Below are positions 46,075-62,820 of a stretch of 64,000 nt of DNA, one piece after another. Numbering within the stretch: position 1 is the first letter of the stretch; every line of letters starts with the position of its first letter. The position numbers and the translations under genes are program-made. The stretch lies in contig JAFSTX010000065.1 in the NCBI GenBank assembly GCA_017445585.1, forward strand, positions 48,128 through 112,127. Reading direction: 5' to 3'. The notes under the pieces are model-generated. The model did no database searches and was not told the DNA's origin. It was given only the letters and a program-made list of their open reading frames with translations. The stretch is from Lachnospiraceae bacterium. Its GTDB lineage: Bacteria > Bacillota > Clostridia > Lachnospirales > Lachnospiraceae.

Positions 46075-46103
46075 ATTATAATCTTTTTTATTCAGATTGT
46101 CAC
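46075..46103 (-). promoter_or_regulatory. Candidate promoter of the asp23-yloV-recG unit
   Basis: Minus strand has GTGACA (46103-46098), a 17-nt spacer, then TATAAT (46080-46075). It abuts the stop codon of the last pilus-locus gene. Confidence 0.5.
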
Positions 46104-47026
46104 TATTTTTTTATCCCTGGCAAAACACCCGCAGCGCACTTATCAAATGCCATCATACTCGTGCAATCAGTGAAACCGGTCTCCACTGAATAGTAATAAG
46201 GTTCATCTGAAAGGAAATCTTCGTCTGATACAACAGCCGAATTGACTTCCCGTATCATTTTTCTAAGATCCTCCACGGAAGCCGGCATCTCTTCGGGAAT
46301 CACTATAGCTTCATGGATCGATGAAGGAATTACAAAAAAACCATCCCCAACATATTCCTGTATCTGCTTTATGCATGAAGTAAATGTAACGTATGAAAAG
46401 CCGTATACACCCATCTCGGAAGTAATGAAAAGCGGAGTACTTTCCTTTCCCTCTTCGGGTTCGCCATTTATAGAACCTATTTTGAGAGGATAATTCCGAA
46501 GTGTAGTTTCCTCGGCTGCAGAAAAAAGTTCATCCGCATCCAGACCCCATGTTTCCATCAGTTCGTCCGAAACGGCGCATCCTGCAAAAGATCCGGAATT
46601 CCCCGGTTCGGTACATATTATGTACACTATCTGTGCCAGATCGCCTGCCGGCCTGCGATGAGGCAGTTTTTTCAAGATATCTTTATTACGCGTATGATTG
46701 ATCGTCTTTATTGTCAGCCTGTCTCTGACAGTATCCCAGACGTTTATGCCTGCGATAAGCTCAGGATCAGGCAAAGGCTCCTCGCGGATAACTCTGTCGA
46801 TCTCGCACAGAATCCTGTCCATTGAAGCTCCTCTCAGGTAGCACCAGAACATATCGTCCATGTCAAAAACAGGACTCACGAGACCTCTGACCACCTCCAT
46901 TCCGGTATAAGTCCTGTTTGGCTTCTCGACCTGTCTGATCATAGTTTCCAATGACCATCTGTCGGCTATATGCATCCGCACGGTTTCCATAAATTCGTTT
47001 TTGTTCATCCCGTTCATGTTCGTCAT
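46103..47026 (-). CDS. DUF5688-like hypothetical protein
   Basis: 307 aa. The C-terminal pattern FFVIPSSIHEAIVIPEE....E.L..MI.EVN...V..EDFLSDEPYYY resembles DUF5688 as I recall it. Not verified by search. Confidence 0.5.
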   Translation of the reverse strand: MTNMNGMNKNEFMETVRMHIADRWSLETMIRQVEKPNRTYTGMEVVRGLVSPVFDMDDMFWCYLRGASMDRILCEIDRVIREEPLPDPELIAGINVWDTVRDRLTIKTINHTRNKDILKKLPHRRPAGDLAQIVYIICTEPGNSGSFAGCAVSDELMETWGLDADELFSAAEETTLRNYPLKIGSINGEPEEGKESTPLFITSEMGVYGFSYVTFTSCIKQIQEYVGDGFFVIPSSIHEAIVIPEEMPASVEDLRKMIREVNSAVVSDEDFLSDEPYYYSVETGFTDCTSMMAFDKCAAGVLPGIKK

Positions 47027-47042
47027 CTCCGTTTTGCATTCT

Positions 47043-49049
47043 TCAGTCCGAGTTAAAGACAGCTATAAGTCTGATCTCGCCGTCGTTGACAAATGTTCCG
47101 TTAGAAACTACAGATGCTATCTCTCCGGGCAGCACCTTTCCCGAGGAATCTGTGATCTTTTCTCCGAGTACCGGCAGTCCCGCCGCATCCTCTCCCAGGC
47201 ATATATAGTATCCGTCAAAACTGCCCCGGTATCTGGCCGGGACCGGTACGGCGACCGTAGTATGATCACTTATATCACACGAGACGAATAAGCTGTTTTC
47301 ACCGTACTCGCTCCACAATACCCTTGTATCATCTGCTCTGATCCACGAGGCATATAAGCTGATACTGCTTTTATCCGAATCACTGATCCTGATCTTCTCT
47401 CCTCCTGTATAGGATGCAGGCCCTTCTGTACTCGTGCTCCATCCCGAAAAAGCAAAGCCTGTGCGTTTTGGTTCGCTGCCATGTGACAGAGTCTGTACCG
47501 TATGCGTCTCCCCAAAGACAAGCTCACTGGACAGGATATGATCATTCCCGGGCCAGCTGCCGCCGTTCACATCATAGCTTACAGTCACTTTAAGCGGATC
47601 ATAGCTGATGGCAAATGTCCCGCACAGGACCTGATTGGACGAACCTGACGACGTCTTCTGCTTTGAGCAGAAGGTCAGCACTATATAGTCATCACCTTTT
47701 GCAGTTACAACAGCTGTAAAATCCAGAAACGGATCCCTGCCAAAATCCCTGTATACGGCTTTTCTGACTTCAATGCAGCTGACTTGAAGCACCGAGCTTA
47801 TAGACAAAATGAAATCTCTCATATACTCGGAGCTGTAGTCAGTGATATCTGCTGTAGACATGTCTATTCCGTAATCTGCGTTGTACGTCGATCTATAGAC
47901 ATTCTGTTTGGTACCGTTATATGTCCCGGTCACGTAGTCTTCAGCCGCTTGTCCGTCATGCTCTACCAGCGAATCATAGAAATCCTCCTGACCGGGAGCC
48001 GAACCTGCCACAGACTGAACATAGCTTCTCAGAGCACCTCTCTTTGTATTTACACCCTTTGCGGTAAAATCCACATAATCACCTATCCTCGCCGTCCCGA
48101 TCCATACACCCGCGTCCGCCGTAATCGCATTCTGAGATGTGCTGAGCGCGTAGGCATCAGTGCTTCCAAACAGGCTCTCTGCTATCACCGACAGTATCCC
48201 TCTGTCATTTTCTCTGCTGCAGATCCGTAAATCAAAAACATTTGCCGGAGAGAGTGCGATTCTAAGCATACCCTGTTCAAAAGTATACAGATCCGGACTC
48301 AGCGCCACTCCGGAACCGTTGACATAAATTGCCGGATCACCTGAAAAAAGCGCTGTCAGATCGATATCCTGAGACCTTGCATTAATTATGATCTCAGGAT
48401 CATATACGGACTGATTGTGTATCAGCTCGGCTTCGTCTTCTGCCTCGATATGGATATCTATCTCTGTCCGGTCAGACCTGTACGCCCTCAGCAGCTGCAG
48501 CTGGACATAGTCTGTCAGTATCTCATCTCCATCATGCGAGTAAAGATCGGTTTTTTTTACATATACCACGCCGGAATCCCTGTCAAAGATCTCGTCATCA
48601 AGCAATATTCCCTCATAATTGTTCTCTGCAAATGCAGCGTCAGATACTCCTCCCGGCGATGAGATATCTATCAGCCCCACAACATACTCCGAGTATTCTC
48701 CTGGATCAAACAGGGGTATCGAAGTCTCGGCAGTCAGTATATATCCATCCGGAAATCCGGTGCTGCGCACATGGTCATAGTATCCGTCAAGTGTGCCGCC
48801 GGTCTTTCTGACAACACTCTCGCGGACATATGTGTCTTTGAGAGTGAGACTCGCAACTTCTGTCAGTGTTTCAGGCGAAAGTTCACTGATTCCTATGATA
48901 TCCCTGTCAATCCTTGAGGAGAGTGTCTCCTGCATCTCACGTGAAACTGAATATACTTCCCCCGATCCGGACGCAACCGCATACGCGGAAAGGATAAGCA
49001 AAGCAAAGGTTAGAACTGCCGCTGCAATCCTCAAACTGTTTTTAATCAT
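47043..49049 (-). CDS. Secreted large protein with a Listeria-Bacteroides (InlB B-repeat/Flg_new-type) repeat region
   Basis: Start at MIKNSLRIAAAVLTFALLILSAYAVA-SG (Sec signal). Contains VTVSYDVNGGSW...RTGFAFSGWSTSTEG...YTGGEKI and a second ...FDGYY... unit. No LPXTG and no prepilin motif. Confidence 0.65.
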   Translation of the reverse strand: MIKNSLRIAAAVLTFALLILSAYAVASGSGEVYSVSREMQETLSSRIDRDIIGISELSPETLTEVASLTLKDTYVRESVVRKTGGTLDGYYDHVRSTGFPDGYILTAETSIPLFDPGEYSEYVVGLIDISSPGGVSDAAFAENNYEGILLDDEIFDRDSGVVYVKKTDLYSHDGDEILTDYVQLQLLRAYRSDRTEIDIHIEAEDEAELIHNQSVYDPEIIINARSQDIDLTALFSGDPAIYVNGSGVALSPDLYTFEQGMLRIALSPANVFDLRICSRENDRGILSVIAESLFGSTDAYALSTSQNAITADAGVWIGTARIGDYVDFTAKGVNTKRGALRSYVQSVAGSAPGQEDFYDSLVEHDGQAAEDYVTGTYNGTKQNVYRSTYNADYGIDMSTADITDYSSEYMRDFILSISSVLQVSCIEVRKAVYRDFGRDPFLDFTAVVTAKGDDYIVLTFCSKQKTSSGSSNQVLCGTFAISYDPLKVTVSYDVNGGSWPGNDHILSSELVFGETHTVQTLSHGSEPKRTGFAFSGWSTSTEGPASYTGGEKIRISDSDKSSISLYASWIRADDTRVLWSEYGENSLFVSCDISDHTTVAVPVPARYRGSFDGYYICLGEDAAGLPVLGEKITDSSGKVLPGEIASVVSNGTFVNDGEIRLIAVFNSD

Positions 49050-52020
49050 AAAACCACCCCCATCCTGAATAGAATGTGATCCGCTGTCTCTGTTTTTCAA
49101 AACATACCTCTACCGGTCCGTAACTGCCGTATTCTGATCTGTATACCCCGTCATACACGTATGCCCTCAGAGTATATGTCCGCACACCGATATATTCATC
49201 AGGCCCTATTGAAAAAATATCCACAAGCCAGGATCCGTCGCTCTTTTCGGTATCACTGTCCAAAGTGCGGTCCACCGAGCGTACGATACAGTCATCACAG
49301 CCTTCCTCATGGCAGCTGATCTCATAATGGATACTGATGCTTCCGTCATCCGGATACATTTCGGCTGCGAGTACCGGCAGCAGTGCGGTATCATAGTGAT
49401 AGCTGTATCTTCCTCCGCCGGGGAGGGACACCTCCGGTGGAAGAAGACCTGATGCACTGCATACGAGATCCAGATCCTCAAGCCCCGCAGTGATCACGGA
49501 CAGCTCTGTGTCCGGATGTTCGATTTCTTCAGGCAGACCTGTTATCCTGGTTCCGCAGTATCCCGGTCTGCGGAGGATCTTGAGATACTCCAGCCGGATT
49601 TCCTCCCCGTACTCAAAAGTCTTACGTATGGTGCCGCTGTCCGTATCCCATTCATCCGCTCCGAGGGACTCTATACCTCTGCCCGGAGCGATACTTACTG
49701 TGCATACCGGCAGGGTATCCTGCCAGTCACCATAGTGATGCCCAAGTTCCGTCATATCCGGATACGGGTAACGCTTACCCTTCAATCCTTCTGAGACCGG
49801 ATATGTCTCGGATGCGTCGAGCAGGAGGCCTTCATACAGCTCTTTCAATCCTCTTAAGGATGATCTGATACCGCGGCTGTCTGTCTGAACATCTTTATTC
49901 GAATAAACCTCATCGAAGAAGCAGTCTGCAAATATGGAGTTTATCGCCTCATCACTGTCCGCAGCTTCAACTGTTCCGATGATCCCGCCGGCGAATACCC
50001 TGTCCCCTCCGACTATGACAGGAGCAGTATGATAGCTCATCTCATCAAGCTCGATATGAATGCTTTCTCCTACGACACATCCTATGAATCCCCCTATACG
50101 GATCTCTCCGCAATCATCTGTCATGACAGCCTTTAGTGACTGAACAGAATATGACGATCCAACGCATACTTCCGTATCCAACCCATCATCTCCGCACATT
50201 CCGGCAAAGCCTCCCATGCAGATCGCAGCACATCCCGAGCCTTTCGTATCCAAATTGCCAAATTCATGATCATACATCCCGCCGGGCGCATACCCTCCGC
50301 AGTAGCTTCGCCGTATATCCAGATACTCACCTGCCTTTCCAATAAATCCTCCGATGCACACATTATCCGGCAAACTGCTTTTCCCCGAGATTCTCATCGT
50401 GGAGTAGCATTCCGATATCTTCATCATCCCGGCACTGCCTGCAAAAGCACCTGCGCAAACCGTATCGGGCTGAAGGTACAGCAGCGGAGTCGACAGCGCC
50501 AGACCCGATCCCACGATGCCCAGCGATGTGATCTCCAGATCCTCTGCCCTCCCGAATAACCCTTGGCACGACATGAATCCGCCGCCTATGCACAGGTCAT
50601 ATATCTTCCTTCCGCATCCGGCAAGGTTCACCTTGCATACGCAGTCTATCGGCACAAATGCGTCTTTTCCGCTGCCGTCCTGCATACAGATACCGTAAAG
50701 AAGATCACAGTAGTCTCGCGTCACCTGATCGTTCTCAGGATACCTGCCGGAGTACGAAAGGTCTTCTCCGAGTATTACCCGAAGAGTCTTCCCTCCGGAA
50801 TAAACTCCCGGATCAAATCCGCTGACAGCTCCGGAGATGTTCTGAAGATGCCTTATTGCGGTGACCTCCAGCGTCCCGTTTACGGCGCGTTCAAACAGAG
50901 AGTTCACAGTTACCTGGCTGCAGACCGGAAGAGCCAGATAATCACCGGCCGGCGATACCGTAACGCTGATACAGAGATCTTCCCCGGGGATAAAACCGTC
51001 CCCCATGATCTCAGAGATATGACAACCTTCTGTTTCCGGTTCGTTTCCGCTGTTTCCCAGGAAAACAAGTGAATCCAATACTATTCCGGTCTCAAATATC
51101 CCGTCCTCGTCAAATCGTGCGTATTCTATCTCTAAAGGAGTCCCGTCAGAGGTCAGTGCGCAAAGGCCAATCCTTCTGTCAGTATCTCCGCTTTTCAGCA
51201 TGCAGCTATTCTTGTCTATAGAAAATTCCCTGCTGCATCCACTCTGTACTCCGACGATCTTAAACGATAAATCCGTACCTGCTGTATTCGGATCATAGAT
51301 TTCCAGCATCAGATCCTCTCCGTTTGATACAGACACGACCGGAGCATCAAGGCTGATACTCTTTACATCTGAAACAATCCCTCCTCCGTAGTATCCCAGG
51401 ATCACCTGCTGATCTCCGCTGACATATGTCTGTCTGTAATGCCTGGCGTCCTTTTCGCTGATGTCTCCGTTACGGCGACCGCCCCGATTCAGGTATGCGG
51501 CCACATGAGCATAATCCAGAGGCGCATCCGTATCAGCGTATATCACTCCGTACACGGCCATTGCCTCTGCATTATATTCGATAAAGAATCTGTCGTCCCC
51601 ACTGCGGCTTACAAGCACGCTGCTGCCGTCCAAAAGTGTGCCGTCTACGAAAGCAGAATCCTCTTCATCCATACTGTCCAGAAACCGGCAGTTGCCTGTA
51701 TCGCCGAAAGTGTATTCTATAAGAGCTGCTCTGTCGTATCCTGAAACATCAGACCAGTAGTCAAAATCAGACGGTGTCTCATCCATAGTATGCCCGTATC
51801 TTTCCATGCTTTCTCCGGAATGGTTCAGACGTAACTCTCCGATTCGATTCTGTGCCGTGATATAGATATTCCTGGCAGTCTCATCCGCTTCACGCGTACG
51901 GCTCTCAAGCCTGATACTGCGAAGTGAGACCGCGGCAAGAACCGACAGAATCGTGATCACAGATACCGTTATCAGCATTTCCGCAACAGTGAATGCCCGC
52001 CTGTATACAGACGTTCTCAT
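49042..52020 (-). CDS. Giant (992 aa) prepilin-like protein with GLUG-like repeats, a putative pilus-associated adhesin
   Basis: N-terminus MRTSVYRRA-FTVAEMLITVSVITILSVLAAV is a class III signal (F+1, E+5) but has Ala at -1. Recurring GGF[IA]G / GGIIG units (IGGFIGKAGE, MGGFAGMCGD, IGGFIGCVVGE, AGGIIGTVEA). ATGA overlap with the pilO-like gene. Confidence 0.7.
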   Translation of the reverse strand: MRTSVYRRAFTVAEMLITVSVITILSVLAAVSLRSIRLESRTREADETARNIYITAQNRIGELRLNHSGESMERYGHTMDETPSDFDYWSDVSGYDRAALIEYTFGDTGNCRFLDSMDEEDSAFVDGTLLDGSSVLVSRSGDDRFFIEYNAEAMAVYGVIYADTDAPLDYAHVAAYLNRGGRRNGDISEKDARHYRQTYVSGDQQVILGYYGGGIVSDVKSISLDAPVVSVSNGEDLMLEIYDPNTAGTDLSFKIVGVQSGCSREFSIDKNSCMLKSGDTDRRIGLCALTSDGTPLEIEYARFDEDGIFETGIVLDSLVFLGNSGNEPETEGCHISEIMGDGFIPGEDLCISVTVSPAGDYLALPVCSQVTVNSLFERAVNGTLEVTAIRHLQNISGAVSGFDPGVYSGGKTLRVILGEDLSYSGRYPENDQVTRDYCDLLYGICMQDGSGKDAFVPIDCVCKVNLAGCGRKIYDLCIGGGFMSCQGLFGRAEDLEITSLGIVGSGLALSTPLLYLQPDTVCAGAFAGSAGMMKISECYSTMRISGKSSLPDNVCIGGFIGKAGEYLDIRRSYCGGYAPGGMYDHEFGNLDTKGSGCAAICMGGFAGMCGDDGLDTEVCVGSSYSVQSLKAVMTDDCGEIRIGGFIGCVVGESIHIELDEMSYHTAPVIVGGDRVFAGGIIGTVEAADSDEAINSIFADCFFDEVYSNKDVQTDSRGIRSSLRGLKELYEGLLLDASETYPVSEGLKGKRYPYPDMTELGHHYGDWQDTLPVCTVSIAPGRGIESLGADEWDTDSGTIRKTFEYGEEIRLEYLKILRRPGYCGTRITGLPEEIEHPDTELSVITAGLEDLDLVCSASGLLPPEVSLPGGGRYSYHYDTALLPVLAAEMYPDDGSISIHYEISCHEEGCDDCIVRSVDRTLDSDTEKSDGSWLVDIFSIGPDEYIGVRTYTLRAYVYDGVYRSEYGSYGPVEVCFEKQRQRITFYSGWGWFYD

Positions 52021-52637
52021 ATCCGCACCTCCTTTCCTTTGCCTGCAGTTCCGACAGCCCCAGTATAACTATCGGCATACTCAATAAAAAACAAAGATAA
52101 AGTCACAGATACACAGCATTTCCCGGAGATACTCCGATCTGTCAGGTCTGCCTGTGGTTCGGGATCCACCGCATTGACCGCGATAGATCTGAATACCGTC
52201 CTGCACGGAGATCCGATGATAAGTCCCATTATCTTTCTCGCTTCGGTATAGTTTTCCGCCTTGAAATCTATACTGACTCCGCGCCTTATATATGCGCCGT
52301 CCGGTCCTGACGGTTCATCAAATGCGATATCGTATGTGATAGCCTGTTCCATTACAGACGACAAATAGGCCAGTTCCTCCTCGGCGCTGTCATATCTGAA
52401 CACCTTTTTTCCGAGTGACATGCCTTCCGCTATCTCACTTTTCATCTGTGCCAGTCTGGCTGCGCGCAGTTCCTCGGCAGATCTGTCCTGTTCTATCTGC
52501 GTCAGCTCTGCCTCAAGTCCAGCCTTCTGACCGTCTATATATGAGTCAAGCATACTAAAGCAGGTTATGCCCGCTAAAACGACGAACAGAAACGAGACTG
52601 CGGATATAACGATCAGTTTTTTCTTTCTTTCCTTCAT
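52017..52637 (-). CDS. PilO-like pilus assembly protein (bitopic, coiled coil)
   Basis: 206 aa with an N-terminal TM, then a coiled coil (LEAELTQIEQDRSAEELRAARLAQMKSE). Assignment rests mainly on position after the pilM/pilN-like genes. Confidence 0.45.
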   Translation of the reverse strand: MKERKKKLIVISAVSFLFVVLAGITCFSMLDSYIDGQKAGLEAELTQIEQDRSAEELRAARLAQMKSEIAEGMSLGKKVFRYDSAEEELAYLSSVMEQAITYDIAFDEPSGPDGAYIRRGVSIDFKAENYTEARKIMGLIIGSPCRTVFRSIAVNAVDPEPQADLTDRSISGKCCVSVTLSLFFIEYADSYTGAVGTAGKGKEVRI

Positions 52638-52646
52638 TCGGTCATC

Positions 52647-53222
52647 TCACTCCCTGTCTGCAAAACAGACTTTAAGTTCAATCGTCGGAACACGGACCGG
52701 TTCTCTTCCTGCGCCGTTACTGTATACAGCCATATTACTTGCTGTCCTGGTCGCCGCATATGATATAAGCTCATCAGCGGTCAGAAGCCCGATCATATCC
52801 GAAGCTCCCCAAAGCGATACATCAAATACAGTAGCCGAAAGATCATTGCCTGAAAGACGATATTTCATGACAGCACCGTTGGAAATGATGTATTCGTCGA
52901 TCTTGTCCAGCACTATGTCTCTGTCAGCAAGCATGCGCTCATCGTCCGTCAGATAGCCTGTCCCGTACTCGGTATACATAGCTGCGACATCACCGAAATC
53001 TGCATTAGCCTCCCGCAGGGCCTCCAGTTCTCTCAGTGAGGATTCTCTGTGAGATCTGAGCCCGGAGAGTGAATTATACGCAGGGATCATCAGGAAATAG
53101 ACTGCAGTAAGTACTGCAGCCAGAAGCGCCAGAAAAGACAGAATGATTGCTATCTCTGCGCGAAAGGAGCTGTTTTTCCTGACAAGATTGATCGAATGCG
53201 CGGTATGTACTTCTCTCTTCAT
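52647..53222 (-). CDS. PilN-like pilus assembly protein (bitopic)
   Basis: 191 aa. Short cytoplasmic N-terminus (INLVRK...), a TM, then a coiled coil. ATGA overlap with pilM-like. Positional/topological call. Confidence 0.45.
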   Translation of the reverse strand: MKREVHTAHSINLVRKNSSFRAEIAIILSFLALLAAVLTAVYFLMIPAYNSLSGLRSHRESSLRELEALREANADFGDVAAMYTEYGTGYLTDDERMLADRDIVLDKIDEYIISNGAVMKYRLSGNDLSATVFDVSLWGASDMIGLLTADELISYAATRTASNMAVYSNGAGREPVRVPTIELKVCFADRE

Positions 53223-54079: not shown

Positions 54080-54876
54080 ACCTCCATATTAAATATGCCT
54101 AGATAAATACTGATAAGCGTCGGCCCGAACACAGAACATACAAATGTAGACAGGCAGATAGACGGCACGAAAGCGAAACTCCTGTCTGTCGCATCCCGCC
54201 TGAATGCCGCATACAGCAGTCCGAACAGACACATAAGAACGATGTTAAGCAGGCTGCCTGCAAGCCCCAGAAACAGTCCCGTGGAGAACAGAAGCTTTAC
54301 GTCAGCTCCTCCGAGGCAGTCCTTTTTGAGTATCATTTTCAGGGCAATAGCCGCTGCAAGTATGAGTGCAGGTATCAGCAGCCCGCCCAAAGCCGCGTTT
54401 ATCAGGTATTTTGACGTATCCTTCTCAAAAGGTATCATCGCCGTCCAGATCAGGGCCATTAGTACAAAGAAAATGTTAGGCACGGTCCTGGTATCCAGAT
54501 CGGTCAGCGACGCCGGAATAAGAAGCGAGAGCATCACCAGAGCCTTTGCCAGCTGAAGTCCGTATCCCAGATACAGATAACACAGCAGAAATGACGCAGC
54601 CGTAAATAGTTCTGTCATAAAATGTCTGACAGGAATACGCTCTTTGCAGTATCTGCACCTTCCGCGCAGTATCAGATAACTCGCTATCGGCAGCAGATCT
54701 GCGGCCGACAGCAAATGCATGCAGTGGTCACACACACTCCTTTTTCCCGACAAAGCTGTATCGGCATTGACATATCTCCATGCGCAGCAGTCCAGAAAGG
54801 ACCCCATGACAGCACCTGAGATAAAGAATAAAAATGCGGAAAAAATCTTAAATCCCAAAAGATCGGTAATCTCCAT
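54067..54876 (-). CDS. pilD: Prepilin peptidase (A24 family, PilD)
   Basis: Start at MEITDLLGF. Has the N-terminal Cys pairs CDHC...CRYC, catalytic-Asp contexts LTDLDTR and GGADVKL, and is polytopic. Confidence 0.88.
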   Translation of the reverse strand: MEITDLLGFKIFSAFLFFISGAVMGSFLDCCAWRYVNADTALSGKRSVCDHCMHLLSAADLLPIASYLILRGRCRYCKERIPVRHFMTELFTAASFLLCYLYLGYGLQLAKALVMLSLLIPASLTDLDTRTVPNIFFVLMALIWTAMIPFEKDTSKYLINAALGGLLIPALILAAAIALKMILKKDCLGGADVKLLFSTGLFLGLAGSLLNIVLMCLFGLLYAAFRRDATDRSFAFVPSICLSTFVCSVFGPTLISIYLGIFNMEVWQL

Positions 54877-54889
54877 CACATCACCTCCG

Positions 54890-54912
54890 GGGAGAGGGAC
54901 CAGCCCTCTCCC
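54890..54912 (-). terminator. GC-rich 9-bp hairpin just after the short pilin gene (attenuator/mRNA stabiliser candidate; no U-tract)
   Basis: GGGAGAGGG-5 nt-CCCTCTCCC. It lies between the pilin stop (54935) and the pilD SD/start (54876). Confidence 0.45.
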
Positions 54913-54934
54913 GTGTATTGCCCTGAAAACCGGA

Positions 54935-55390
54935 TCAACCTTCCCAAACGAGCTGGATCGTTCCGGTATCATTCATGAAGACCTTGATATACTTGCCTGC
55001 CACAGCGCTGGTACCGGAGTAGGTGGCCTGAGCAACGGTCTCCGAAGGATTGACGACCATATAAAAGTCCTCGCATCCGCCGTCTGTAGCCGTACCTCTG
55101 CCGTAACCGACCGGAACGTCAGCTACAAGCATGCCGGAAGCCGCATCAAAATAGCACGTGGTGCCGGTTGAGGTCAGTGTCTGGTTCTCGAGATCTTCAC
55201 CAGACAGATACATGGCTACTGCAGCGGCCTTTGCCGAGCGCATGTTTGCTATGTCCGTTTCTTCTCGCGCATTCTCAAGTCTCGACCCGAATACCGGGAT
55301 CGCAATGACAGCGAGCACGGCGATGATTGCGACTACGATCAGAAGTTCGGCCAGTGTAAATCCATTCTCTTTTCTTTCTTTTCTTTTCAT
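54935..55390 (-). CDS. pilA: Type IV pilin (151 aa; likely major subunit)
   Basis: MKRKERKENG-FTLAELLIVVAIIAVLAVIAIPVF is a class III signal with G-1, F+1, E+5. Two C-terminal Cys (CYFDAASG...GGCEDF). AAAGGAGGAAATA SD upstream. Confidence 0.88.
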   Translation of the reverse strand: MKRKERKENGFTLAELLIVVAIIAVLAVIAIPVFGSRLENAREETDIANMRSAKAAAVAMYLSGEDLENQTLTSTGTTCYFDAASGMLVADVPVGYGRGTATDGGCEDFYMVVNPSETVAQATYSGTSAVAGKYIKVFMNDTGTIQLVWEG

Positions 55391-55467
55391 TATTTCCTCC
55401 TTTTATATCCCGGCAAAAGCAAGGATGGTCCCAGGGCCTGACCACGTCTTTGCTCCGCCTGTTTCTT

Positions 55468-56562
55468 CTAAAACAACTCATACATCTGAAATAAAGGAAT
55501 ATAGATAGCAAAAACTATAAAGCCTGCTATAATCGCTACAGCTATGAGCAATGCAGGTTCCATAAGGGACAGAAGCTTTTTGACCTGACTGTCGGCTTCG
55601 TCTGAAAAGTGTCTGGCACACATATCCAGCATGTTAGTCAGATCACCGGTCTCCTCCCCGATAATGATCATCTCCGTCAGAATATCCGGAAATACTTCTT
55701 CTCCTCTCATACTCACGCCCAAACCTCTGCCTGTCAGAACTCCCCTGCAGGATCTTGATACTGCTTCCGAAAAAGACGTATTGGTAATAACGGAAGACGT
55801 TATCTCGAGCGCTCTGGTGATCACTGTTCCTGAGGAGAGAAGCATGGAAAGCGTAGACGCGTACATAGATGAATATCTGTTCCTGAGCAGTCCGCCCAGC
55901 ATGGGCAGAGACAGTCTGGCTTTATCTATCTTCCTTCTCCACTGTATCTTCCTTCCCATGGCGATCCTCACCACGATCACAAGAGCGGCTGCGCCCGCGA
56001 TAAGCAGCGCATTTCTGCCGAAGAATCCCGATACTGCAACGATAGCCTTTGTAATCCCCGGGAGCTCGCTTCCCATTCCGTCAAATATCGCTGTGAGCTT
56101 GGGCATGACATACAGCATTACAACGAGCAGTACTGCAATGGCGATCAGGATGACAAACGAGGGATAAATCAGCGCGTTCCGGATCTGTCTCTTCATTCCG
56201 GATCGCTTTCTGTAGTATTCTGCAAGGCTGTCAAATGCTCTCTTAAGCTCTCCCGAGCTTTCACCCGCCCTGACAGTTTCTATGAAGAACGGCTTGAAAA
56301 GCCCCTCGCCGTTATTTGCGAAAGCAGACGCTACAGTACTTCCGGACCGGAGATCCCTGTATACCGACTCAAGAAGCGGACTAAGCTTGCGGTCGGATGT
56401 CTCCCGCTGTATCATCCCGACGCAATCTGTGATCTGCAGTCCGCTCCCGAGGAGTCCCGCGATCTGTGTACACATAAAACTCATGGAATCATCCTTTATT
56501 GCAGGACTGATATCCTTTTTTAATAAGCTTGTTTTTCTATCAGAAACATTCATATCATTCAA
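55468..56562 (-). CDS. pilC: Type IV pilus platform protein PilC (T2SS F family)
   Basis: Two T2SSF repeats (..R.G..L..A........F...F......GE.SG.L) with three TM segments. Confidence 0.9.
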   Translation of the reverse strand: MNDMNVSDRKTSLLKKDISPAIKDDSMSFMCTQIAGLLGSGLQITDCVGMIQRETSDRKLSPLLESVYRDLRSGSTVASAFANNGEGLFKPFFIETVRAGESSGELKRAFDSLAEYYRKRSGMKRQIRNALIYPSFVILIAIAVLLVVMLYVMPKLTAIFDGMGSELPGITKAIVAVSGFFGRNALLIAGAAALVIVVRIAMGRKIQWRRKIDKARLSLPMLGGLLRNRYSSMYASTLSMLLSSGTVITRALEITSSVITNTSFSEAVSRSCRGVLTGRGLGVSMRGEEVFPDILTEMIIIGEETGDLTNMLDMCARHFSDEADSQVKKLLSLMEPALLIAVAIIAGFIVFAIYIPLFQMYELF

Positions 56563-58282
56563 CCGTATTAAAGACTCTGACCGCTTCCGACGAGGTGGTC
56601 ACACCGTCAAAAATCTTGTCAAGGCATACCTGCTTGAGTCTCCTGTATCCCGTACGCAGTGCCATATCCCTGACAGTCTCTATATCTGCCCCCGCAGCAA
56701 TACATCTGCGCAGCTCCCGTTCCATGAGCAGAATCTCAAAGACTCCGCTCCTGCCCTTGTATCCCGTACCTGCACACGCAGGGCAGCCTGTGCCTCGATA
56801 CAGCCTCACCTCGTCTGTGGCATCCTCTCCTGCGGCCAGCTCGGCAAGCTCTCCGGCCTCGGCCTCATAAGACACCCTGCAGGCAGGACAGATTTTTCGG
56901 ACAAGTCGCTGGCTGATTACACCTATCAGCGAGGAAGCGATCATGTATCCCGGCACTCCCATATCCAGCAGACGTTCAAAGGCAGCAACAGCGCTCGACG
57001 TATGGATCGTGCTTATTACGAGATGACCTGTGATAGCCGCCCTCATGGCGATCTCAGCGGTCTCACGGTCACGGATCTCACCTATACAGATTATGTCCGG
57101 ATCCTGTCTCAAGGCTGCCTTCAGTCCTTTGACAAAAGTCATCCCGCTCTTTGTATTGATCTGCACCTGTGAAATCCCGTTCATATGGTATTCGACAGGA
57201 TCCTCCAGGGTTATTATGTTCACGTCCTTACGGTTCAGAGTACTGAGCATTGCATACTGAGTCGTGGATTTGCCGCTCCCTGTCGCACCTGATATCAGGA
57301 TAAGTCCGCTGTGATTGGAAAGGAGCTTTTCGTATTTGGACATATTATCCTGATCCATTCCCAGAGAATCCTTTTCCAGTATCCCGATGCTTTTGCGCAG
57401 CAGCCTGATGACTACCTTCTCGCCATATACAGTAGGCAATGTGGAGATTCGCAGATCCGTCTCCTCTTCGCCGCTGCGCACACTCGTGCGTCCGTCCTGC
57501 GGTACTCGCTTTTCCGCGATATCCATGCCGGCCATGACCTTGATCCTTGCTGTTACGGAAGGGTGCAGTCTCCTCGAAATACGCTGCATCTCTCTGAGCA
57601 GTCCGTCCACCCTGATACGTATCACACACTCACGCTCACCAGGCTCGATATGAATATCCGATGCGCGCTGCTCAAGTGCCATAGTGATCATCGAACTGAC
57701 ATACCTTGCCGTAGCTGAATCGATATCTTCCGTCTCCGCACCGGGATCGGGAGCAGCAGCTGTTTCCATGCTGTGTCCGTCGTGATCCTCTGTCATCTCG
57801 GCTATCGCTCTGTGGCTCTGTTCGACACCGTACACCTCGGTGATACGGCGGTCTATGGCAGACGGGAATGCCGTACAGGGTCTGATCCTTTTCCCCGAGT
57901 ATTCCCTTGCTTTCTGTATGGCCAGCAGGTCCTGAGGATCCTTCATGGCGAGCAGCAGCCACTGATCCGAGATTCTGACCGGAAATATCCCCTGGCTCCT
58001 GCATATCTGCGGCGGAAGGCTTCTGACTGCTTCCCCGTCTGTTTTCTCCGCATCTATATCAGCAAATACTGCCCCGGAAATCTCCGTATATATCCTGACC
58101 ACGTCGGTCTCTGTGAGAATCATCATCTCACACAGATACTCAGCCAGAGTCCTTCGGATCGTCTGTTTCTCGCTTCCTGAAAACCTGAGTGCTGTCTCTG
58201 CTTCCTCGAGCTGCTGTCTGCTGACAAGGTTATGCTGCAGGACGTATTTCCTGAAACTGATCTGCTCCATCATTTCCTCCAA
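56555..58282 (-). CDS. pilB: Type IV pilus assembly ATPase PilB (GspE family)
   Basis: T2SSE_N domain, Walker A GATGSGKSTT, Asp box, Walker B, His box, and tetracysteine CPAC...CPACAGTGYKGR. The ORF-track start is TTG. An ATG at 58270 with GGAGG 5 nt upstream is the more likely start. Confidence 0.92.
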   Translation of the reverse strand: MEEMMEQISFRKYVLQHNLVSRQQLEEAETALRFSGSEKQTIRRTLAEYLCEMMILTETDVVRIYTEISGAVFADIDAEKTDGEAVRSLPPQICRSQGIFPVRISDQWLLLAMKDPQDLLAIQKAREYSGKRIRPCTAFPSAIDRRITEVYGVEQSHRAIAEMTEDHDGHSMETAAAPDPGAETEDIDSATARYVSSMITMALEQRASDIHIEPGERECVIRIRVDGLLREMQRISRRLHPSVTARIKVMAGMDIAEKRVPQDGRTSVRSGEEETDLRISTLPTVYGEKVVIRLLRKSIGILEKDSLGMDQDNMSKYEKLLSNHSGLILISGATGSGKSTTQYAMLSTLNRKDVNIITLEDPVEYHMNGISQVQINTKSGMTFVKGLKAALRQDPDIICIGEIRDRETAEIAMRAAITGHLVISTIHTSSAVAAFERLLDMGVPGYMIASSLIGVISQRLVRKICPACRVSYEAEAGELAELAAGEDATDEVRLYRGTGCPACAGTGYKGRSGVFEILLMERELRRCIAAGADIETVRDMALRTGYRRLKQVCLDKIFDGVTTSSEAVRVFNTVE

Positions 58283-58844
58283 GGATCATTGATTCGGGCC
58301 ATACTCTGAAGCAGCCGTCAAGGATGGCGCTGCCTTCATCATCCGTGATCCGGACGGACAGATCGACAGCTCCGTCCGGCCCCAGACTGTAGTCCAGCGA
58401 TGTATTCAGAGTCACAGGCCTTATCGCGGTAAGAAACCTTGCGCGTTCCGGACAGAGACTTACCAAGTCTCCTCTTTCACTGCAGAATCTGATACTTCCG
58501 TTCACGCTCTCCAGATATCCCCTGCAGCCCCTGCTGCGGCTGGCAAACGTCAGTTTCCCGCTCACCGGATCTTCTGTGAAATCCTCCGCTGATTCAAGTT
58601 CATGCATCAGGGCGTATTCATAGTCAAAAAGGATCGCTCTCGCATTTGCCTTTGCCGTGCTTTCCGCGTAGACAGAAACTCCGGAATATATGGCGGCGAC
58701 GGCTATCAGACCGCTCAGCGCCGCAAAAAAAAGCGCGGTAAGTGACTCAGCCAGCGTAAAGCCGGCTTTTCTCCTGTCAGCCCTTATATCTGTAGCCGCA
58801 GAAGCCTCCCGTTTCCGCAAAAAACGTTTCCACCGTGATCTCAT
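58230..58844 (-). CDS. Minor prepilin-like protein (204 aa)
   Basis: ...RRKAG-FTLAESLTALFFAALSGLIAVAAI is a class III signal with E+5. Overlaps its neighbours on both sides. Confidence 0.7.
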   Translation of the reverse strand: MRSRWKRFLRKREASAATDIRADRRKAGFTLAESLTALFFAALSGLIAVAAIYSGVSVYAESTAKANARAILFDYEYALMHELESAEDFTEDPVSGKLTFASRSRGCRGYLESVNGSIRFCSERGDLVSLCPERARFLTAIRPVTLNTSLDYSLGPDGAVDLSVRITDDEGSAILDGCFRVWPESMILGGNDGADQFQEIRPAA

Positions 58845-59082
58845 CCCTTATCCCGTCCTCGCTTTCCGTATAAAGTATGCAGGTTCCGTTTGCATCATTC
58901 TTCCCTGATATAAAACTCCTGACTTCGCTTATCGAATCGCAGAGTCTTATCCTTTGATCTGTCGACGAACTGCCTATCCTCGTTCCCGTCAGTGTGCACG
59001 TCAGAAAAAGCACCGAAGAAAGTACTGTGATCAGGAATGCCGCAAGTGATTCTGCAAGCGTCTCGCCCCGGGAGCTTCTCAT
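58777..59082 (-). CDS. Minor prepilin-like protein (101 aa), degenerate signal
   Basis: MRSSRG-ETLAESLAAFLITVLSSVLFL has G-1 and E+5, but E instead of F at +1. ATGA overlap with the upstream gene. Confidence 0.5.
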   Translation of the reverse strand: MRSSRGETLAESLAAFLITVLSSVLFLTCTLTGTRIGSSSTDQRIRLCDSISEVRSFISGKNDANGTCILYTESEDGIRDEITVETFFAETGGFCGYRYKG

Positions 59083-59645
59083 GTGTAGGTTCCTCCCGTG
59101 AATGAGAGCATCCTTTCCCCGCCTTCATTTGCACTCTCATACAGATCGGCACCAAATAAAACGGTTCGTTTGCTCGGAAGCGGCATTTCTTCTCCATCTC
59201 TTTCTATCTTTCTCACGCTGACGCTCACACTGTAATCGGAGCTTGAAATCCTGAAGATCAGTCGCATGACTATCTTCTGACTGCTCAGACGCATGATGAA
59301 CGGAAGCTCGTATTCGTGCTCCGGTTCGGCACACAGCCTGTATAGTCCGTGCGCAAGGTATTTGTGGAACACACCTGTCCCGGCTTCCTTGGTCCGCATC
59401 TCCAGCTCGGCAAGCCCCATATTCTCAGAGTAGCAGACTTCCTTTCCGGAAATGCTGTCCGAGATCAGTCTCAGCGCCGACTCGGTAAAGAGTTTCGATT
59501 CGTATTCGTCGTTCATTTTTGTGTTTCCTCCTGATAAAGCAGATGAATTAGCTATAATCATAAGCCCCAGTGAGCTGCATATGAGCAGCATGAAAAGGGC
59601 TGCCGCGAGCGATGCGCCGCGATCTTTTCCTGTTCCTCTCATCAT
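59079..59645 (-). CDS. Minor prepilin-like protein lacking Glu+5 (PilX/GspK-class candidate, 188 aa)
   Basis: MMRGTGKDRG-ASLAAALFMLLICSSLGLMII has a hydrophobic pilin-type helix, but +5 is Ala. ATGA overlaps at both ends. Confidence 0.45.
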   Translation of the reverse strand: MMRGTGKDRGASLAAALFMLLICSSLGLMIIANSSALSGGNTKMNDEYESKLFTESALRLISDSISGKEVCYSENMGLAELEMRTKEAGTGVFHKYLAHGLYRLCAEPEHEYELPFIMRLSSQKIVMRLIFRISSSDYSVSVSVRKIERDGEEMPLPSKRTVLFGADLYESANEGGERMLSFTGGTYT

Positions 59646-60907
59646 GGCCTGACATACCTGACCCTGTAGCGAAGGCCGTTGTCCAGATCGTTTTCGAGCC
59701 AGTAATAATTCGCGAACATGTTTATTCGTCCCGATATATCCTGGTCAAAGCAAGCTCCCGATGCTCCTCCGATCTTCTGAGCAGCGCTGAAATAAAACGT
59801 ACAAGCGTATACGCCTCCCGAGGTCATCGAAACACCGCGTTTGCCCGTTATGCAGATGTCACCGTCGTTCTCAGATGTGCAGTCTCTCACCGTAAGTCCC
59901 GACAGAGTGCACTGACAGTCCTCAGCCAGAACCAGAGCGGCGCCCCTTGAGGCGGTGCAGTTCACTATAACTGCTTTTCCCGTCGTGCCGAACATCTTCC
60001 CGTCCGAATAGATTGCCCCGCCGCCTGCGTCAGAAGAATTGTGTCCGTTAGTAAGAGTGATATTGCCTATATACATGGTGCCATGATTGGCGATAAGCGT
60101 TCCGCCGCCTTCGTCAAAGCTGCCGTCAGCTCCGACGATGCTGCCGCCTCCCGCTGTATCGTCTATATCGAGCCGGTTGCGTGAAGCATTCTCTATAAGC
60201 CTCATTGGCTTTTTTGCAGAGATCGTATGCCCCTGAAGATAAAGCTTGAGCGTGATCCCTGAAGGGCTGTCAGGATTTGTGACCAGAGTGCTTCCGGACG
60301 CGGGGATGGCGATATCCTGCTCCAGATAAAAAGTCCCGCCCCTTCTGAATGCCTCAACGAGCTGACTGTATGTATAGACCCGTCCCTGCCTGAAGCCCTG
60401 AGCATACCGGACCGGGGTGATCTCGGTGCCTGCCCTGGTTTCTCCGTCCTCATTGACCCACCTGAGCGAATGCACTCCCGAATCATTCAGATAGACCTCC
60501 AGCACACAGCCTTCCACGTCGTTGTCGGAGCGGTAATACTCCCTGTCAAAGTACTCAAGGGGATCCGTAATGAGACAGAAATCCTCGCATCCTCCTTTCA
60601 TGGAAGTACCCCTGCCATAAGGCGCAGGCATCTCTCCCACGATCGAGCCTGAGGCAGCATCAAAATAGCAATAGACGCCTACATCATCCAGCATCTCTCC
60701 CCCGGGACCGCGTCCGGAAAAGATCATGTCCTCGGCCGCAGCCTTTGCGCTCCTCATGTTTGCGATATCGGCCGCCTCCCGCGAGCCTTCGAGCGAAGAG
60801 GCAAAGACAGGGATCGCTATCACTGTCAGTACAGCTATCACCGCAACCGTGATGAGCAGTTCACCTAGAGAAAAGCCGTATGCAGATGATAATCCATGTT
60901 TTCTCAT
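59642..60907 (-). CDS. Modular type IV pilin: PilA-paralogous pilin domain + C-terminal beta-helix-like (Pmp-type) module of about 250 aa
   Basis: Start MRKHGLSSAYG-FSLGELLITVAVIAVLTVIAIPVF, with AAAGGAGGAATGTTAC before the ATG. Residues 1 to about 170 parallel the 151-aa pilin, including both Cys. The remainder has AGGGSIVG, EGGGTLIANHG, DAGGGAIYSDG, NCTASRGAAL. Confidence 0.75.
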   Translation of the reverse strand: MRKHGLSSAYGFSLGELLITVAVIAVLTVIAIPVFASSLEGSREAADIANMRSAKAAAEDMIFSGRGPGGEMLDDVGVYCYFDAASGSIVGEMPAPYGRGTSMKGGCEDFCLITDPLEYFDREYYRSDNDVEGCVLEVYLNDSGVHSLRWVNEDGETRAGTEITPVRYAQGFRQGRVYTYSQLVEAFRRGGTFYLEQDIAIPASGSTLVTNPDSPSGITLKLYLQGHTISAKKPMRLIENASRNRLDIDDTAGGGSIVGADGSFDEGGGTLIANHGTMYIGNITLTNGHNSSDAGGGAIYSDGKMFGTTGKAVIVNCTASRGAALVLAEDCQCTLSGLTVRDCTSENDGDICITGKRGVSMTSGGVYACTFYFSAAQKIGGASGACFDQDISGRINMFANYYWLENDLDNGLRYRVRYVRP

Positions 60908-61130
60908 GTAACATTCCTCCTTTACTGTTTCAGCCGGCTGCTCACGCGCCCGTGCGGACTTCTGCCGCATCAGGGTGAACTTAACAGACCGGCGGTCCAT
61001 CCCGGATCCCGGCTGTAATAACATATTCATGTACCTTCCCGTTCCGGACCGAACCGGTCCGATATAAGACAGATACTTCATCTGAATCAGGTCTCGCCTG
61101 CTGTAATAAAACTGTATCACAAAGGCAGTG

Positions 61131-61189
61131 GACATAAAAGGCCGTCATCGGTGACATAATCTGCCATTTTTTATGACATAACCGGACAT
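61131..61189 (-). repeat. Phased direct repeats GACATAA (plus-strand reading) between the regulator gene and the modular pilin gene
   Basis: GACAT starts at 61131, 61153, 61175 and 61185. The first three copies are GACATAA at exactly 22-bp spacing, and the fourth (GACATTT) is 10 bp further on. Confidence 0.7.
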
Positions 61190-61205
61190 TTTCCGAACGT
61201 CTTTT

Positions 61206-61673
61206 TTATCCAAAAACCGCCTTTTTATGCGGTCTCTCGGTGTGCACCCTCTTCCTGACATTACTCATATATGCATAATTCTCATAATTTATGCTCAAAA
61301 TCGATCGTGCATTATCGATCAGTCGCTTGATCTGCCGCGTGGAATATTCCATGAGTTCCGCTGTCTCACTGATGCTCATCCCGTCTACGTAAATGTGAGT
61401 TATCACATCTATCATCTCTCTGCGCGGCAGATCTCTGATCATGAGATAGAGCACCTTTTTCATGCGGCTCTCCTCTTTTACGAGCCTCCTGATCTCCTCG
61501 TAGTATTCACGGATCTCTCTGACGTCCGCATCGGCGAAGGATGGCGCCTCGCCTCCGTATCCGCAGTGCGCCACCCCGGCTTCCCTCATAAGCGCCTTGA
61601 TATGCCTGAGTTCCCTCCCCAGGTACTCTATCCTCGAATCGACTGCCGCTATCTCATGTAACAGATCCATCAT
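61206..61673 (-). CDS. Small sigma-70-region-4-like / ArpU-RinA-like transcriptional regulator
   Basis: Start at MMDLLHEI (GGAG SD). The C-terminal HTH LPRREMIDVITHIYVDGMSISETAELMEYSTRQIKRLIDNA resembles sigma region 4, with an N-terminal coiled region. First gene of the pilus locus. Confidence 0.55.
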   Translation of the reverse strand: MMDLLHEIAAVDSRIEYLGRELRHIKALMREAGVAHCGYGGEAPSFADADVREIREYYEEIRRLVKEESRMKKVLYLMIRDLPRREMIDVITHIYVDGMSISETAELMEYSTRQIKRLIDNARSILSINYENYAYMSNVRKRVHTERPHKKAVFG

Positions 61674-61979
61674 TTTTCTCCATATCATATGTATTTCGCT
61701 TTTTCTGCAGGTCCGCCCGGAACCGGGCAAATAAAAAAGATCCGTCATCGACGGATCTGCTCAGACATATTCAGATAAATACATGGAAAACCCACATCAG
61801 TAAGAACAAATAATCTTACTGTCAAAAGCTGCCTGAAGCAGACCTGCGATATGGTGTTTTCCTGCTTTGGCCAGACATGAGAGAGGCCTCCACAACCCTG
61901 AAGCGAGTGAGAAAAGTATATCAGAACATATAAAAACCGCAAGACTTTTTTTAAAAAAAGCGGATGGGATTATTTCATT

Positions 61980-62007: not shown

Positions 62008-62057
62008 ATAACAAAGCAAATTCAGCTACAAGGATTACGATTCTGTATTAACCGTCT

Positions 62058-62810: not shown

Positions 62811-62820
62811 CCCGTACTCC

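Follow-up and report, generated by a model that had tools for sequence, protein, structure and literature searches.

What kind of machine is encoded by the 15 genes that lie between plsC and asp23 on a contig of an uncultured Lachnospiraceae bacterium (JAFSTX010000065.1), and how do the very large proteins among them relate to it? We addressed this question computationally in a 64,000-nucleotide (nt) stretch of that contig, referred to here as the window, in which the genes form one block of open reading frames (ORFs) at positions 61748-46103, all co-oriented on the minus strand, as are all features of the locus described below. In the direction of transcription they encode a regulator, a modular pilin, three small pilin-like proteins, PilB, PilC, a pilin of 151 amino acids (aa), PilD, counterparts of PilM, PilN and PilO, a giant pilin-type protein, a secreted Flg_new protein and a DUF5688 protein. 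An original prediction, made from the letters of the DNA, had read the block as an accessory-looking Gram-positive type IV pilus locus built around three adhesin-sized cargo proteins. The Gram-positive type IV pilus with oversized pilin-like proteins survived our analysis, while the accessory and three-cargo readings did not; at the level of genes, the block itself and the core pilus calls stood, and several gene details and the proposed contrast in GC content had to be corrected. We consider it likely, on the strength of sequence comparisons, that the block specifies a monoderm type IVa pilus (Tfpa)-like machine that displays large binding modules.

The ORF map bore out the description of 15 co-oriented, mostly overlapping genes, with most junctions being overlaps of 4-8 nt or gaps of at most 25 nt. 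The larger gaps are one of 298 nt after the regulator gene and those of about 58-77 nt on both sides of the gene for the 151-aa pilin. With the first start codons, the 204-aa ORF overlaps both the 101-aa ORF and pilB, by 50-70 nt in each case. All ORFs of the pilus locus are intact and tightly coupled.

The core of the assembly machine was recognised directly in hidden Markov model (HMM) scans, which supported all four of the calls first made for PilB, PilC, PilD and the 151-aa pilin and gave the block the peptidase, platform protein and extension ATPase of a monoderm Tfpa. The extension ATPase of the PilB/GspE family (575 aa; 56555-58282) matched T2SSE at 1.6e-126 and MshEN at 9.2e-16, and a Walker A motif (GATGSGKST), a His box and a CPAC...CPAC tetracysteine were read from its translation. 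The arginine and glycine positions typical of the motif with which MshEN domains bind cyclic di-GMP (c-di-GMP) are, by eye, not conserved in its N-terminus, and we make no claim about them. Over its full length PilB scored 534 bits against GspE and 515 bits against PilB, both under the equivalog cut-offs, and 186 bits against pilT_fam. The PilC/GspF platform protein (55468-56562) matched T2SSF in two stretches (2.1e-54) and scored 280 bits against GspF and 219 bits against PilC, again under both cut-offs. The prepilin peptidase and N-methylase PilD (54067-54972, or 269 aa from the start at 54876 used in public gene calls) matched A24_N_bact at 3.4e-24 and Peptidase_A24 at 1.1e-10; its catalytic motifs, GGADVKL and two CxxC pairs as read from the translation, are intact.

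PilM, PilN and PilO define monoderm Tfpa systems (PMC6916266), and a PilM/N/O-like trio had been proposed for the three ORFs downstream of pilD. As single sequences, none of the three matched Pfam or NCBIfam. The relatives of the first (286 aa; 53219-54079) are few, with 13 matches including itself among 1.84 billion representative proteins, and PilM_2 was matched by six of ten members of this family. A profile of the family matched PilM structures in the PDB (3jc8 at 1.5e-16 and 5eox at 1e-11), whereas GspL was reached at only 0.89. By these profile comparisons the protein is a very divergent PilM, the actin-like assembly protein, and provides the PilM component of a Tfpa. The PilN-like protein (191 aa; 52647-53222) has one transmembrane segment (residues 18-52) and an N-terminal SINLV resembling the PilN motif INLLP. 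Its residues 4-162 align with residues 365-523 of PilM-PilN fusion ORFs in related loci (1.8e-6 to 9e-6), and the N-terminal halves of the fusions that were scanned (L007 and L012) match PilM_2. The PilO/GspM-like protein (206 aa; 52017-52637), also with one transmembrane segment (residues 5-34), can be aligned over almost all of its length with the ORFs that separate pilMN from pilB in related loci (2e-9 to 5e-4); the three of these that were scanned matched T2SSM/GspM, the counterpart of PilO in secretion systems, at 4e-7 to 4e-6, around the Pfam cut-off. Neither the PilN-like nor the PilO-like protein gave a direct HMM or PDB sequence match, and their assignments, made through bridging homologues and membrane topology, are probable. 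Of the proposed trio, PilM is thus upheld by its family profile, and PilN and PilO by bridging homologues only.

A pilus machine requires pilins, and six class III (prepilin) N-termini had been counted in the block. In a six-frame scan of the window, prepilin-like N-termini were found inside the block only; the scan recovered four of the six, and those of the 204-aa protein and of a degenerate 188-aa protein were read by eye. Five are canonical, with Gly or Ala at position -1 and Glu at +5 (the 421-, 151-, 204-, 101- and 992-aa proteins), and the sixth, in the 188-aa protein, is a hydrophobic helix without Glu5, so that the class III signal peptides of a monoderm Tfpa are present in the 151-aa pilin, four further canonical proteins and one degenerate one. 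The 151-aa pilin (54935-55390; leader MKRKERKENG followed by FTLAE) matched N_methyl at 7.1e-8 and TIGR02532 with 29.7 bits, and it resembles the pilins encoded after pilC in related loci, with matches of up to 8.5e-19. It is probably the major pilin. Two of the small proteins are minor pilin candidates: the 204-aa protein (196 aa in public calls; 58230-58844), in which a Gly precedes FTLAE and which matches the 151-aa pilin weakly (1.3e-4), and the 101-aa protein (58777-59082; leader MRSSRG followed by ETLAE), recovered by the motif scan and without an HMM match. The 188-aa protein (59079-59645), whose ATG shares bases with the stop of the preceding pilin gene, is a candidate non-canonical minor pilin; ComGG_2 at 0.062 was its sole HMM match. 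Direct HMM and PDB sequence searches with the small minor pilins returned nothing significant.

The ComGG_2 score belongs to a set of sub-threshold matches that could point to a competence (Com) pilus for DNA uptake, the others being ComGA (273 bits against a cut-off of 300), ComGB (130 against 240), ComGC (28 against 75) and ComGD (0.077, on the giant pilin). All Com scores, however, are under their cut-offs and under the scores for PilB, GspE and GspF. To our knowledge, comG operons have no counterpart to the 421- and 992-aa pilins. They also do not contain PilM, PilN and PilO (PMC6916266), which are present here, and we regard a DNA-uptake pilus as highly improbable.

The first of the two pilins with additional modules is encoded upstream of the small pilins (59642-60907). 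It had been described as a modular pilin of 497 aa; the modular architecture holds, and the length is most likely 421 aa, from the ATG at 60907, which is preceded by an AAGGAGG ribosome-binding site eight bases upstream and gives a class III signal with an 11-residue leader (MRKHGLSSAYG followed by FSLGE). Residues 1 to about 155 are a paralogue of the 151-aa pilin (6.4e-44), with 22 of the first 30 mature residues identical, and the protein scored 16.3 bits against TIGR02532, exactly at the cut-off. It therefore contains the pilin module that is a defining part of modular type IV pilins. The C-terminal approximately 270 residues had no significant family match, the best being POMP_repeat at 0.028. 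In an AlphaFold2 (AF2) model the mean predicted local distance difference test (pLDDT) score was 47.5, with residues 180-330 at about 50-84, and the top fold matches were all beta-helix proteins, none of them significant, which is suggestive of a beta-helix in the modelled C-terminal module. The AF2 alignments for the 992-aa and 421-aa proteins had 3 and 5 rows, and both models have a mean pLDDT of about 47. A single full-length homologue of the modular pilin was found (P0018, 52% identity).

The second is the giant pilin-type protein of 992 aa (49042-52020), with a class III N-terminus (leader MRTSVYRRA followed by FTVAE) and an alpha-1 helix. A profile of its N-terminal region matches bona fide pilins, with PDB pilins at 0.006-0.14, and its TIGR02532 score is 14.6 bits against a cut-off of 16.3. 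Beyond alpha-1 come about 400 residues of unknown fold and then, at about 470-700, a beta-helix of GLUG repeats, after which follow a YPYP...HHYGDWQ motif and a C-terminal part rich in beta structure that ends in an invariant ITFYSGxGWFY; about 600 residues outside the GLUG region are uncharacterised. The GLUG repeats, which had been guessed at, are indeed present: the fragment comprising residues 468-708 matched Pfam GLUG at 4e-6 (27.3 bits against a cut-off of 20.5), and GG[FI][IA]G motifs recur in the middle region with a spacing of about 40 residues. This fragment provides the additional module, not particular to pilus biology, that is expected of a modular pilin. In its AF2 model (mean pLDDT 47), residues 450-680, mostly at 57-90, are the only reasonably confident part, and the best fold match was the pneumococcal IgA1 protease (7uvl; probability 0.97, E = 5.7e-3), with further beta-helix proteins ranking behind it. 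No protease domain or PilY1-type domain was reported in scans of the locus proteins. As a side observation, a Pfam scan of the full-length protein missed GLUG, which the fragment revealed with the same library; hmmscan filters can hide short repeats in long proteins.

Relatives of the giant pilin are rare. Among 5.8 billion protein clusters there were two besides itself (39% and 32% identity), a search of JGI metagenomes with its profile gave a single match, a fragment on a 2.2-kb contig, and none was found among 80 genome loci retrieved. Separately, we observed giant ORFs upstream of pilMN in three of the nearest related pilus loci, from rumen Lachnospiraceae (L007:61-4095, L008:80-5554 and L012:51-7247); these range from >1,344 to >2,398 aa and reach the edge of the locus, so their N-termini lie beyond it. 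All three contain Flg_new-like repeats, two of the three contain GLUG-like motifs, and the one in L012 carries the YP..HYGDW motif of the 992-aa pilin twice.

Directly downstream of, and translationally coupled to, the giant pilin gene is the gene for a secreted Flg_new protein (47043-49049; 668 aa from the ATG at 49049, within a 685-aa ORF from 49100). It has a Sec-type signal with a hydrophobic N-terminus, a conserved N-terminal region of about 480 aa of unknown fold and one stretch that matches Flg_new at 1.3e-6, just over the Pfam cut-off; it has neither a cell-wall anchor motif nor a PDB sequence match, and direct HMM searches with the N-terminal region likewise gave nothing significant. 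It had been called a secreted repeat protein of 685 aa, of which secretion stands, while the repeat character does not, because there is only one Flg_new stretch. Similarly, of the three proposed cargo proteins, two are pilin-type proteins with extra modules, and the third, this one, is an ordinary Sec-type protein linked to the others by gene order. Homologues are encoded directly after the giant pilin gene in both L086 (4.6e-96) and L088 (6e-79), and in L088 the two genes share the same 8-nt overlap and the PilO-like gene recurs as well. The recurrence of both genes in these loci indicates a coupled pair that has been conserved alongside the assembly genes.

The machine also differs from related ones in its motors. 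A single GspE-family ATPase and no PilT-type protein had been reported for the locus, and this holds: a second GspE-family ATPase, and with it a PilT, was found neither in the locus nor elsewhere in the window. By comparison, four related loci (L006, L007, L008 and L012) have a GspE-family ORF of 348-350 aa between pilB and pilC, and the one copy that was scanned, that of L007, proved to be a genuine PilT, with 424 bits for TIGR01420, where the cut-off is 319. Since related loci carry PilT in cis, its absence in cis here is a real difference. Beside this, PilB matches in L006-L012 were seen to span about 2.47 kb for some 540 query residues; the ORF map shows two distinct ORFs there, one of about 570 aa and one of 348-350 aa, and the long spans reflect no insertion, arising because tblastn joined PilB with the neighbouring PilT paralogue. 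In the 80 genome loci the best PilB identity was at most 45%, and this PilB-anchored scan yielded no locus with shared accessory proteins (tblastn, 1e-5), an absence that is not absolute as the scan works from peptide patterns.

A filament machine without PilT in its locus or window, encoded together with a secreted protein, could also be a type II secretion system (T2SS)-like pseudopilus: a short, non-retractile filament that pushes the 668-aa Flg_new protein, and possibly the giant passenger, through the peptidoglycan, in the manner of TcpF/CofJ secretion by type IVb pili or of the T2SS analogue proposed for C. difficile. PilB and PilC have their best scores against GspE and GspF, homologues in the position of PilO match GspM, the gene for the secreted, non-anchored protein strictly accompanies that for the giant pilin, and the idea of a T2SS analogue has been raised for C. 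difficile pilin clusters (PMC9556784). The GspE and GspF scores, however, are sub-equivalog (534 bits against 630 and 280 against 424) and only marginally above those for PilB and PilC, and the Pfam scan found no secretin-like protein among the 15 ORFs. For the Flg_new protein, which comes with a Sec signal, a dedicated exporter would be superfluous in a single-membrane host. Because the PilM profile favours PilM over GspL by 1.5e-16 to 0.89, and because the closest homologues of the locus are Tfpa loci of the classical type, with PilT, we judge the pseudopilus to be unlikely and retain the type IVa-like pilus as the better account.

The block opens with a regulatory front end. Upstream of the first gene lies a structured non-coding leader of about 190 nt (61728-61940), which ends in a terminator hairpin (61758-61738) followed by a U-run. 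It folds with a minimum free energy of -69.3 kcal/mol (z = -4.1), not equalled by any of 200 shuffled sequences. The leader, including its terminator, is conserved in the relative L096, with four compensatory pairs, a thin covariation signal from a two-sequence comparison. An Rfam scan of 44-64 kb, made with a view to c-di-GMP riboswitches like that upstream of C. difficile pilA1 and to any other riboswitch, gave no match for the leader or elsewhere at E <= 1; the leader is a candidate unclassified cis-regulatory RNA, either an attenuator or a riboswitch. The regulator itself (61206-61670) is a helix-turn-helix protein of 154 aa in public calls, a form that is an exact member of a public collection; a 180-aa ORF from 61748 would overlap the leader terminator. 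It had been described as similar to sigma region 4 and to ArpU. For the former there are sub-threshold matches (Sigma70_r4_2 at 1e-4 and sigma70-ECF at 3.7e-4), together with phrog_36, 'transcriptional regulator', at 2.3e-7; for the latter, no ArpU model matched at E <= 0.1. A homologue with 51% identity occupies the same position in L096.

Within the 298-nt gap between the regulator and modular pilin genes are three direct TTATGTC repeats with 22-nt spacing (61131-61181), which may serve as operator or promoter. Nowhere else in the window does this triple arrangement occur, 100 shuffles gave no match to it, and the stretch that contains it is 80-96% identical to L096, compared with about 60% in adjoining coding DNA. 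We propose these repeats as a candidate operator of the pilus operon; a leader-controlled activator that acts on them would be a reasonable model of regulation.

We next consider where the locus came from. The two boundary signals that had been named were both found: a terminator hairpin of plsC on the upstream side (62007-61986) and, on the downstream side, a sigma-70-like promoter match before asp23 (46103-46075; GTGACA, 17 nt, TATAAT; 11 of 12 positions), this call being a consensus match only. No terminator was found between the DUF5688 gene and asp23. An identical 20-kb stretch is present on a 127-kb metagenome-assembly contig, for which independent gene calls agree with ours except at some start codons, and the locus proteins are listed at NCBI under locus tags IJS22_07785 to 07845 (MAG: Lachnospiraceae bacterium). 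Sample and genome names suggest the ruminant gut as the likely habitat of the host, as the nearest related contigs derive from rumen metagenome-assembled genomes.

The accessory-looking character of the block had been attributed in part to a GC content of about 50-52% against about 60% in a housekeeping line. When computed, the values are 50.2% for the block and 52.5% for the rest of the window, and the 60% figure is unrepresentative. A recently acquired genomic island between plsC and asp23 would nonetheless be consistent with the lower GC content at third codon positions (GC3) in the block (0.54 against 0.61 outside; Mann-Whitney p = 1.3e-4), with the very narrow distribution of the giant pilin, and with the presence of a DUF5688 gene, which has relatives on plasmids and phage contigs, at one end. 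It would also agree with the situation in a second lineage (C; L086/L087), in which the distal half of the locus, in the order pilin, pilD, pilM, pilN, pilO, giant pilin and Flg_new protein, lies beside different genes, namely a two-component system and unrelated genes with neither DUF5688 nor asp23, and with the region upstream of asp23, in which synteny is not conserved among relatives. Against an island, total GC differs by only 2.3 points and the neighbouring asp23 is lower still in GC3 (0.48), and weakly expressed genes for surface structures commonly show low GC3 and diverge fast. HMM scans, gene calls and a repeat search revealed no integrase, transposase, tRNA or flanking repeats.

Comparison of the asp23/plsC junction with relatives speaks in the same direction. 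In lineage B (L096/L097/L098), plsC is followed in order by the 51%-identical regulator, a 298-nt spacer and the 52%-identical modular pilin, and these genes have diverged as much as or beyond the flanks at about 70-75%. The same regulator and modular pilin after plsC imply that the start of the locus predates the split of the two lineages, which makes a recent insertion unlikely. An island of recent origin, which the accessory label had implied, thus strikes us as improbable, given the absence of a GC island, of repeats, integrase and tRNA, and the shared start after plsC; a lineage-restricted, fast-evolving locus fits better.

The same comparison revealed an anomaly beside the locus. From pncB to plsC, nucleotide identity to lineage B is about 96% (90-100%), ending exactly at the plsC terminator in a sliding window, compared with 62-78% upstream of pncB and 45-80% downstream of plsC; asp23-fakA-recG on contigs of the two lineage B samples is about 75% identical. 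The segment, which includes the NAPRTase gene pncB, is about 2.2 kb long (window 62010-64000 and past its edge; L001:1166-3365) and also has a break at the start of pncB. Against a background of about 70-75%, which the pilus locus fits, it is pncB-plsC that stands out, most likely because these two housekeeping genes were recently exchanged between diverged lineages by recombination or transfer. An interpretation of the pilus locus as a hypervariable cassette, prompted by plsC at 95% identity beside pilus genes at 50%, was rejected, since the sliding window places the anomaly in pncB-plsC and the locus at the background level.

The last gene of the block (46103-47026) encodes a protein without a signal peptide whose earlier assignment as DUF5688-like was confirmed at 2.2e-49. 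The gene does not follow the Flg_new gene in L086, nor does it lie upstream of asp23 in a relative with 87% identity in FakA (L092), and it is probably a passenger that is co-transcribed with the locus, not a pilus component. Homologues were seen on both megaplasmids of Butyrivibrio proteoclasticus B316 and on seven uncultured faecal "Bacteriophage sp." contigs, a hint that the family travels with mobile DNA; the literature searched contained no mention of the family. Upstream of asp23 in the same relative we noted two tandem partial copies (L092:28-1021) that encode ...NIIKY(F/L)PDGLLDAERRAVRHAEREQGVINSVI..., and, at about 1358-1777, an arginine/lysine-rich repetitive stretch; both are unlike the locus in the window and are possibly degenerate or repeated DNA.

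How might the components work together as a type IVa-like pilus? PilD would process the prepilins, and PilB, PilC and a PilM-PilN-PilO complex would polymerise the 151-aa pilin into a shaft. The 421-aa modular pilin may be incorporated into the shaft occasionally, decorating the fibre with its putative beta-helix module; the close paralogy of its alpha-1 helix and pilin module to those of the major pilin should allow it to enter the shaft. In C. difficile, similarity of N-terminal helices has been used to propose which pilins belong to the shaft and which to the tip (PMC9556784), and the same logic groups the 421-aa pilin with the presumed major pilin and sets the small pilins and the giant pilin apart as a divergent set. 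Together with the 992-aa GLUG pilin, the three small and divergent minor pilins may accordingly be envisaged as a priming or tip complex, with the giant pilin's passenger of about 900 residues held at the pilus tip as an adhesin. The Flg_new protein, exported by Sec, might join the giant pilin as a second adhesin subunit. Expression would be activated by the sigma-70 region-4-like protein, itself placed behind a leader with a terminator, through the three TTATGTC repeats. As there is no PilT in cis, we propose that the pilus would serve mainly as a static adhesion fibre, for plant particles, other cells or host glycans, rather than as a twitching motor. For the most specific version of this scheme, a retraction-less Gram-positive pilus with a two-part tip adhesin in which the ITFYSGxGWFY terminus of the GLUG pilin docks the Flg_new protein, controlled by a sigma-like activator and possibly a new riboswitch class, we see only a slim chance.

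Several points weigh against a type IVa-like adhesion pilus. The ATPase and the platform protein have slightly better scores for GspE and GspF than for PilB and PilC, with all four under the equivalog cut-offs, and PilN and PilO come without direct HMM or structural support. The 151-aa pilin is presumed to be the major one; the gene for the modular pilin comes first after the putative promoter. In the giant protein the support for a pilin covers the signal peptide and the alpha-1 helix, short of a head domain, both AF2 models are of low confidence, and the beta-helix of the 421-aa pilin is only suggestive. Gene order is what ties the Flg_new protein to a role in the pilus, and the absence of PilT is established for the 64-kb window.

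Gram-positive anaerobes of the gut and rumen have type IV pili that have hardly been studied, and the way in which simple pilus fibres come by their binding specificity is an active question. The locus offers a compact test case of extreme module grafting in its GLUG pilin, some 1,000 residues long. A second modular pilin, whose carrier is a copy of the presumed major pilin, makes shaft versus tip placement testable, and a conserved secreted partner is encoded as well. In addition, standard HMM annotation misses PilM, PilN, PilO and every pilin other than the 151-aa one in this lineage, so that pilus systems in Lachnospiraceae metagenome-assembled genomes are likely under-called. For pilus biology as a whole the significance is incremental rather than paradigm-changing.

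How, then, does the locus compare with known systems? Neither monoderm type IV pili nor modular pilins are new, and pilins that carry cargo modules are widespread. Similar to the monoderm Tfpa of C. difficile (the pilA1 cluster), C. perfringens and Streptococcus sanguinis, the locus brings together one component set in a single operon-like cluster (PMC6916266), comprising class III prepilins, PilD, PilB, PilC, PilM/N/O and several minor pilins. It differs from the characterised monoderm Tfpa and from the nearest Lachnospiraceae loci in having no PilT in the locus or window, and from those nearest loci in that PilM and PilN are separate rather than fused. Its gene order is also distinct from that of known monoderm Tfpa, with minor pilins first and the giant pilin last, and its PilM, PilN and PilO fall under all direct HMM thresholds. 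In place of the c-di-GMP riboswitch that a reference cited in PMC9556784 reports for C. difficile, it has a sigma-region-4-like regulator behind an unclassified leader.

Modular pilins have been catalogued as more than 1,200 proteins in 264 architectures, the largest quoted having 860 residues, and they act as adhesins (PMC8179133). Like the S. sanguinis pilins PilB (vWA) and PilC (lectin), CofB and ComZ, the two modular proteins described here combine an N-terminal pilin part with a bulky, probably binding, module, and ComZ provides a precedent for a beta-solenoid or beta-helix passenger (PMC8179133). They depart from the known examples in three respects: the 992-aa protein, with its GLUG-type beta-helix, exceeds the 860-residue extreme (PMC8179133); the carrier of the 421-aa pilin is a close paralogue of the presumed major pilin; and the giant pilin is always accompanied by a coupled, secreted Flg_new protein. 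A parallel can also be drawn with the PilY1/PilC tip adhesins of Gram-negative bacteria, for which a tip complex of PilY1 with minor pilins has been proposed (PMC8179133, discussion), in that the giant pilin and the Flg_new protein, judged by size and by their position beside minor pilin genes, could form an adhesin complex at the tip. Unlike PilY1/PilC, to which there is no sequence or domain relationship, the large protein here is itself a prepilin and would therefore need no non-pilin adaptor. Finally, the giant pilin shares GLUG motifs and a predicted beta-helix with GLUG/Flg_new giant surface proteins of Firmicutes such as the pneumococcal IgA1 protease, whereas here the modules are mounted on a prepilin N-terminus. 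What is new, then, is a GLUG pilin of about 1,000 residues, a suggested beta-helix on a copy of the presumed major pilin, the pairing of giant pilin and Flg_new protein, a locus without PilT in cis, assembly proteins of extreme sequence divergence and the regulatory front end, and the locus is an unusual variant, complete yet very divergent, of a known adhesion machine rather than a new kind of system.

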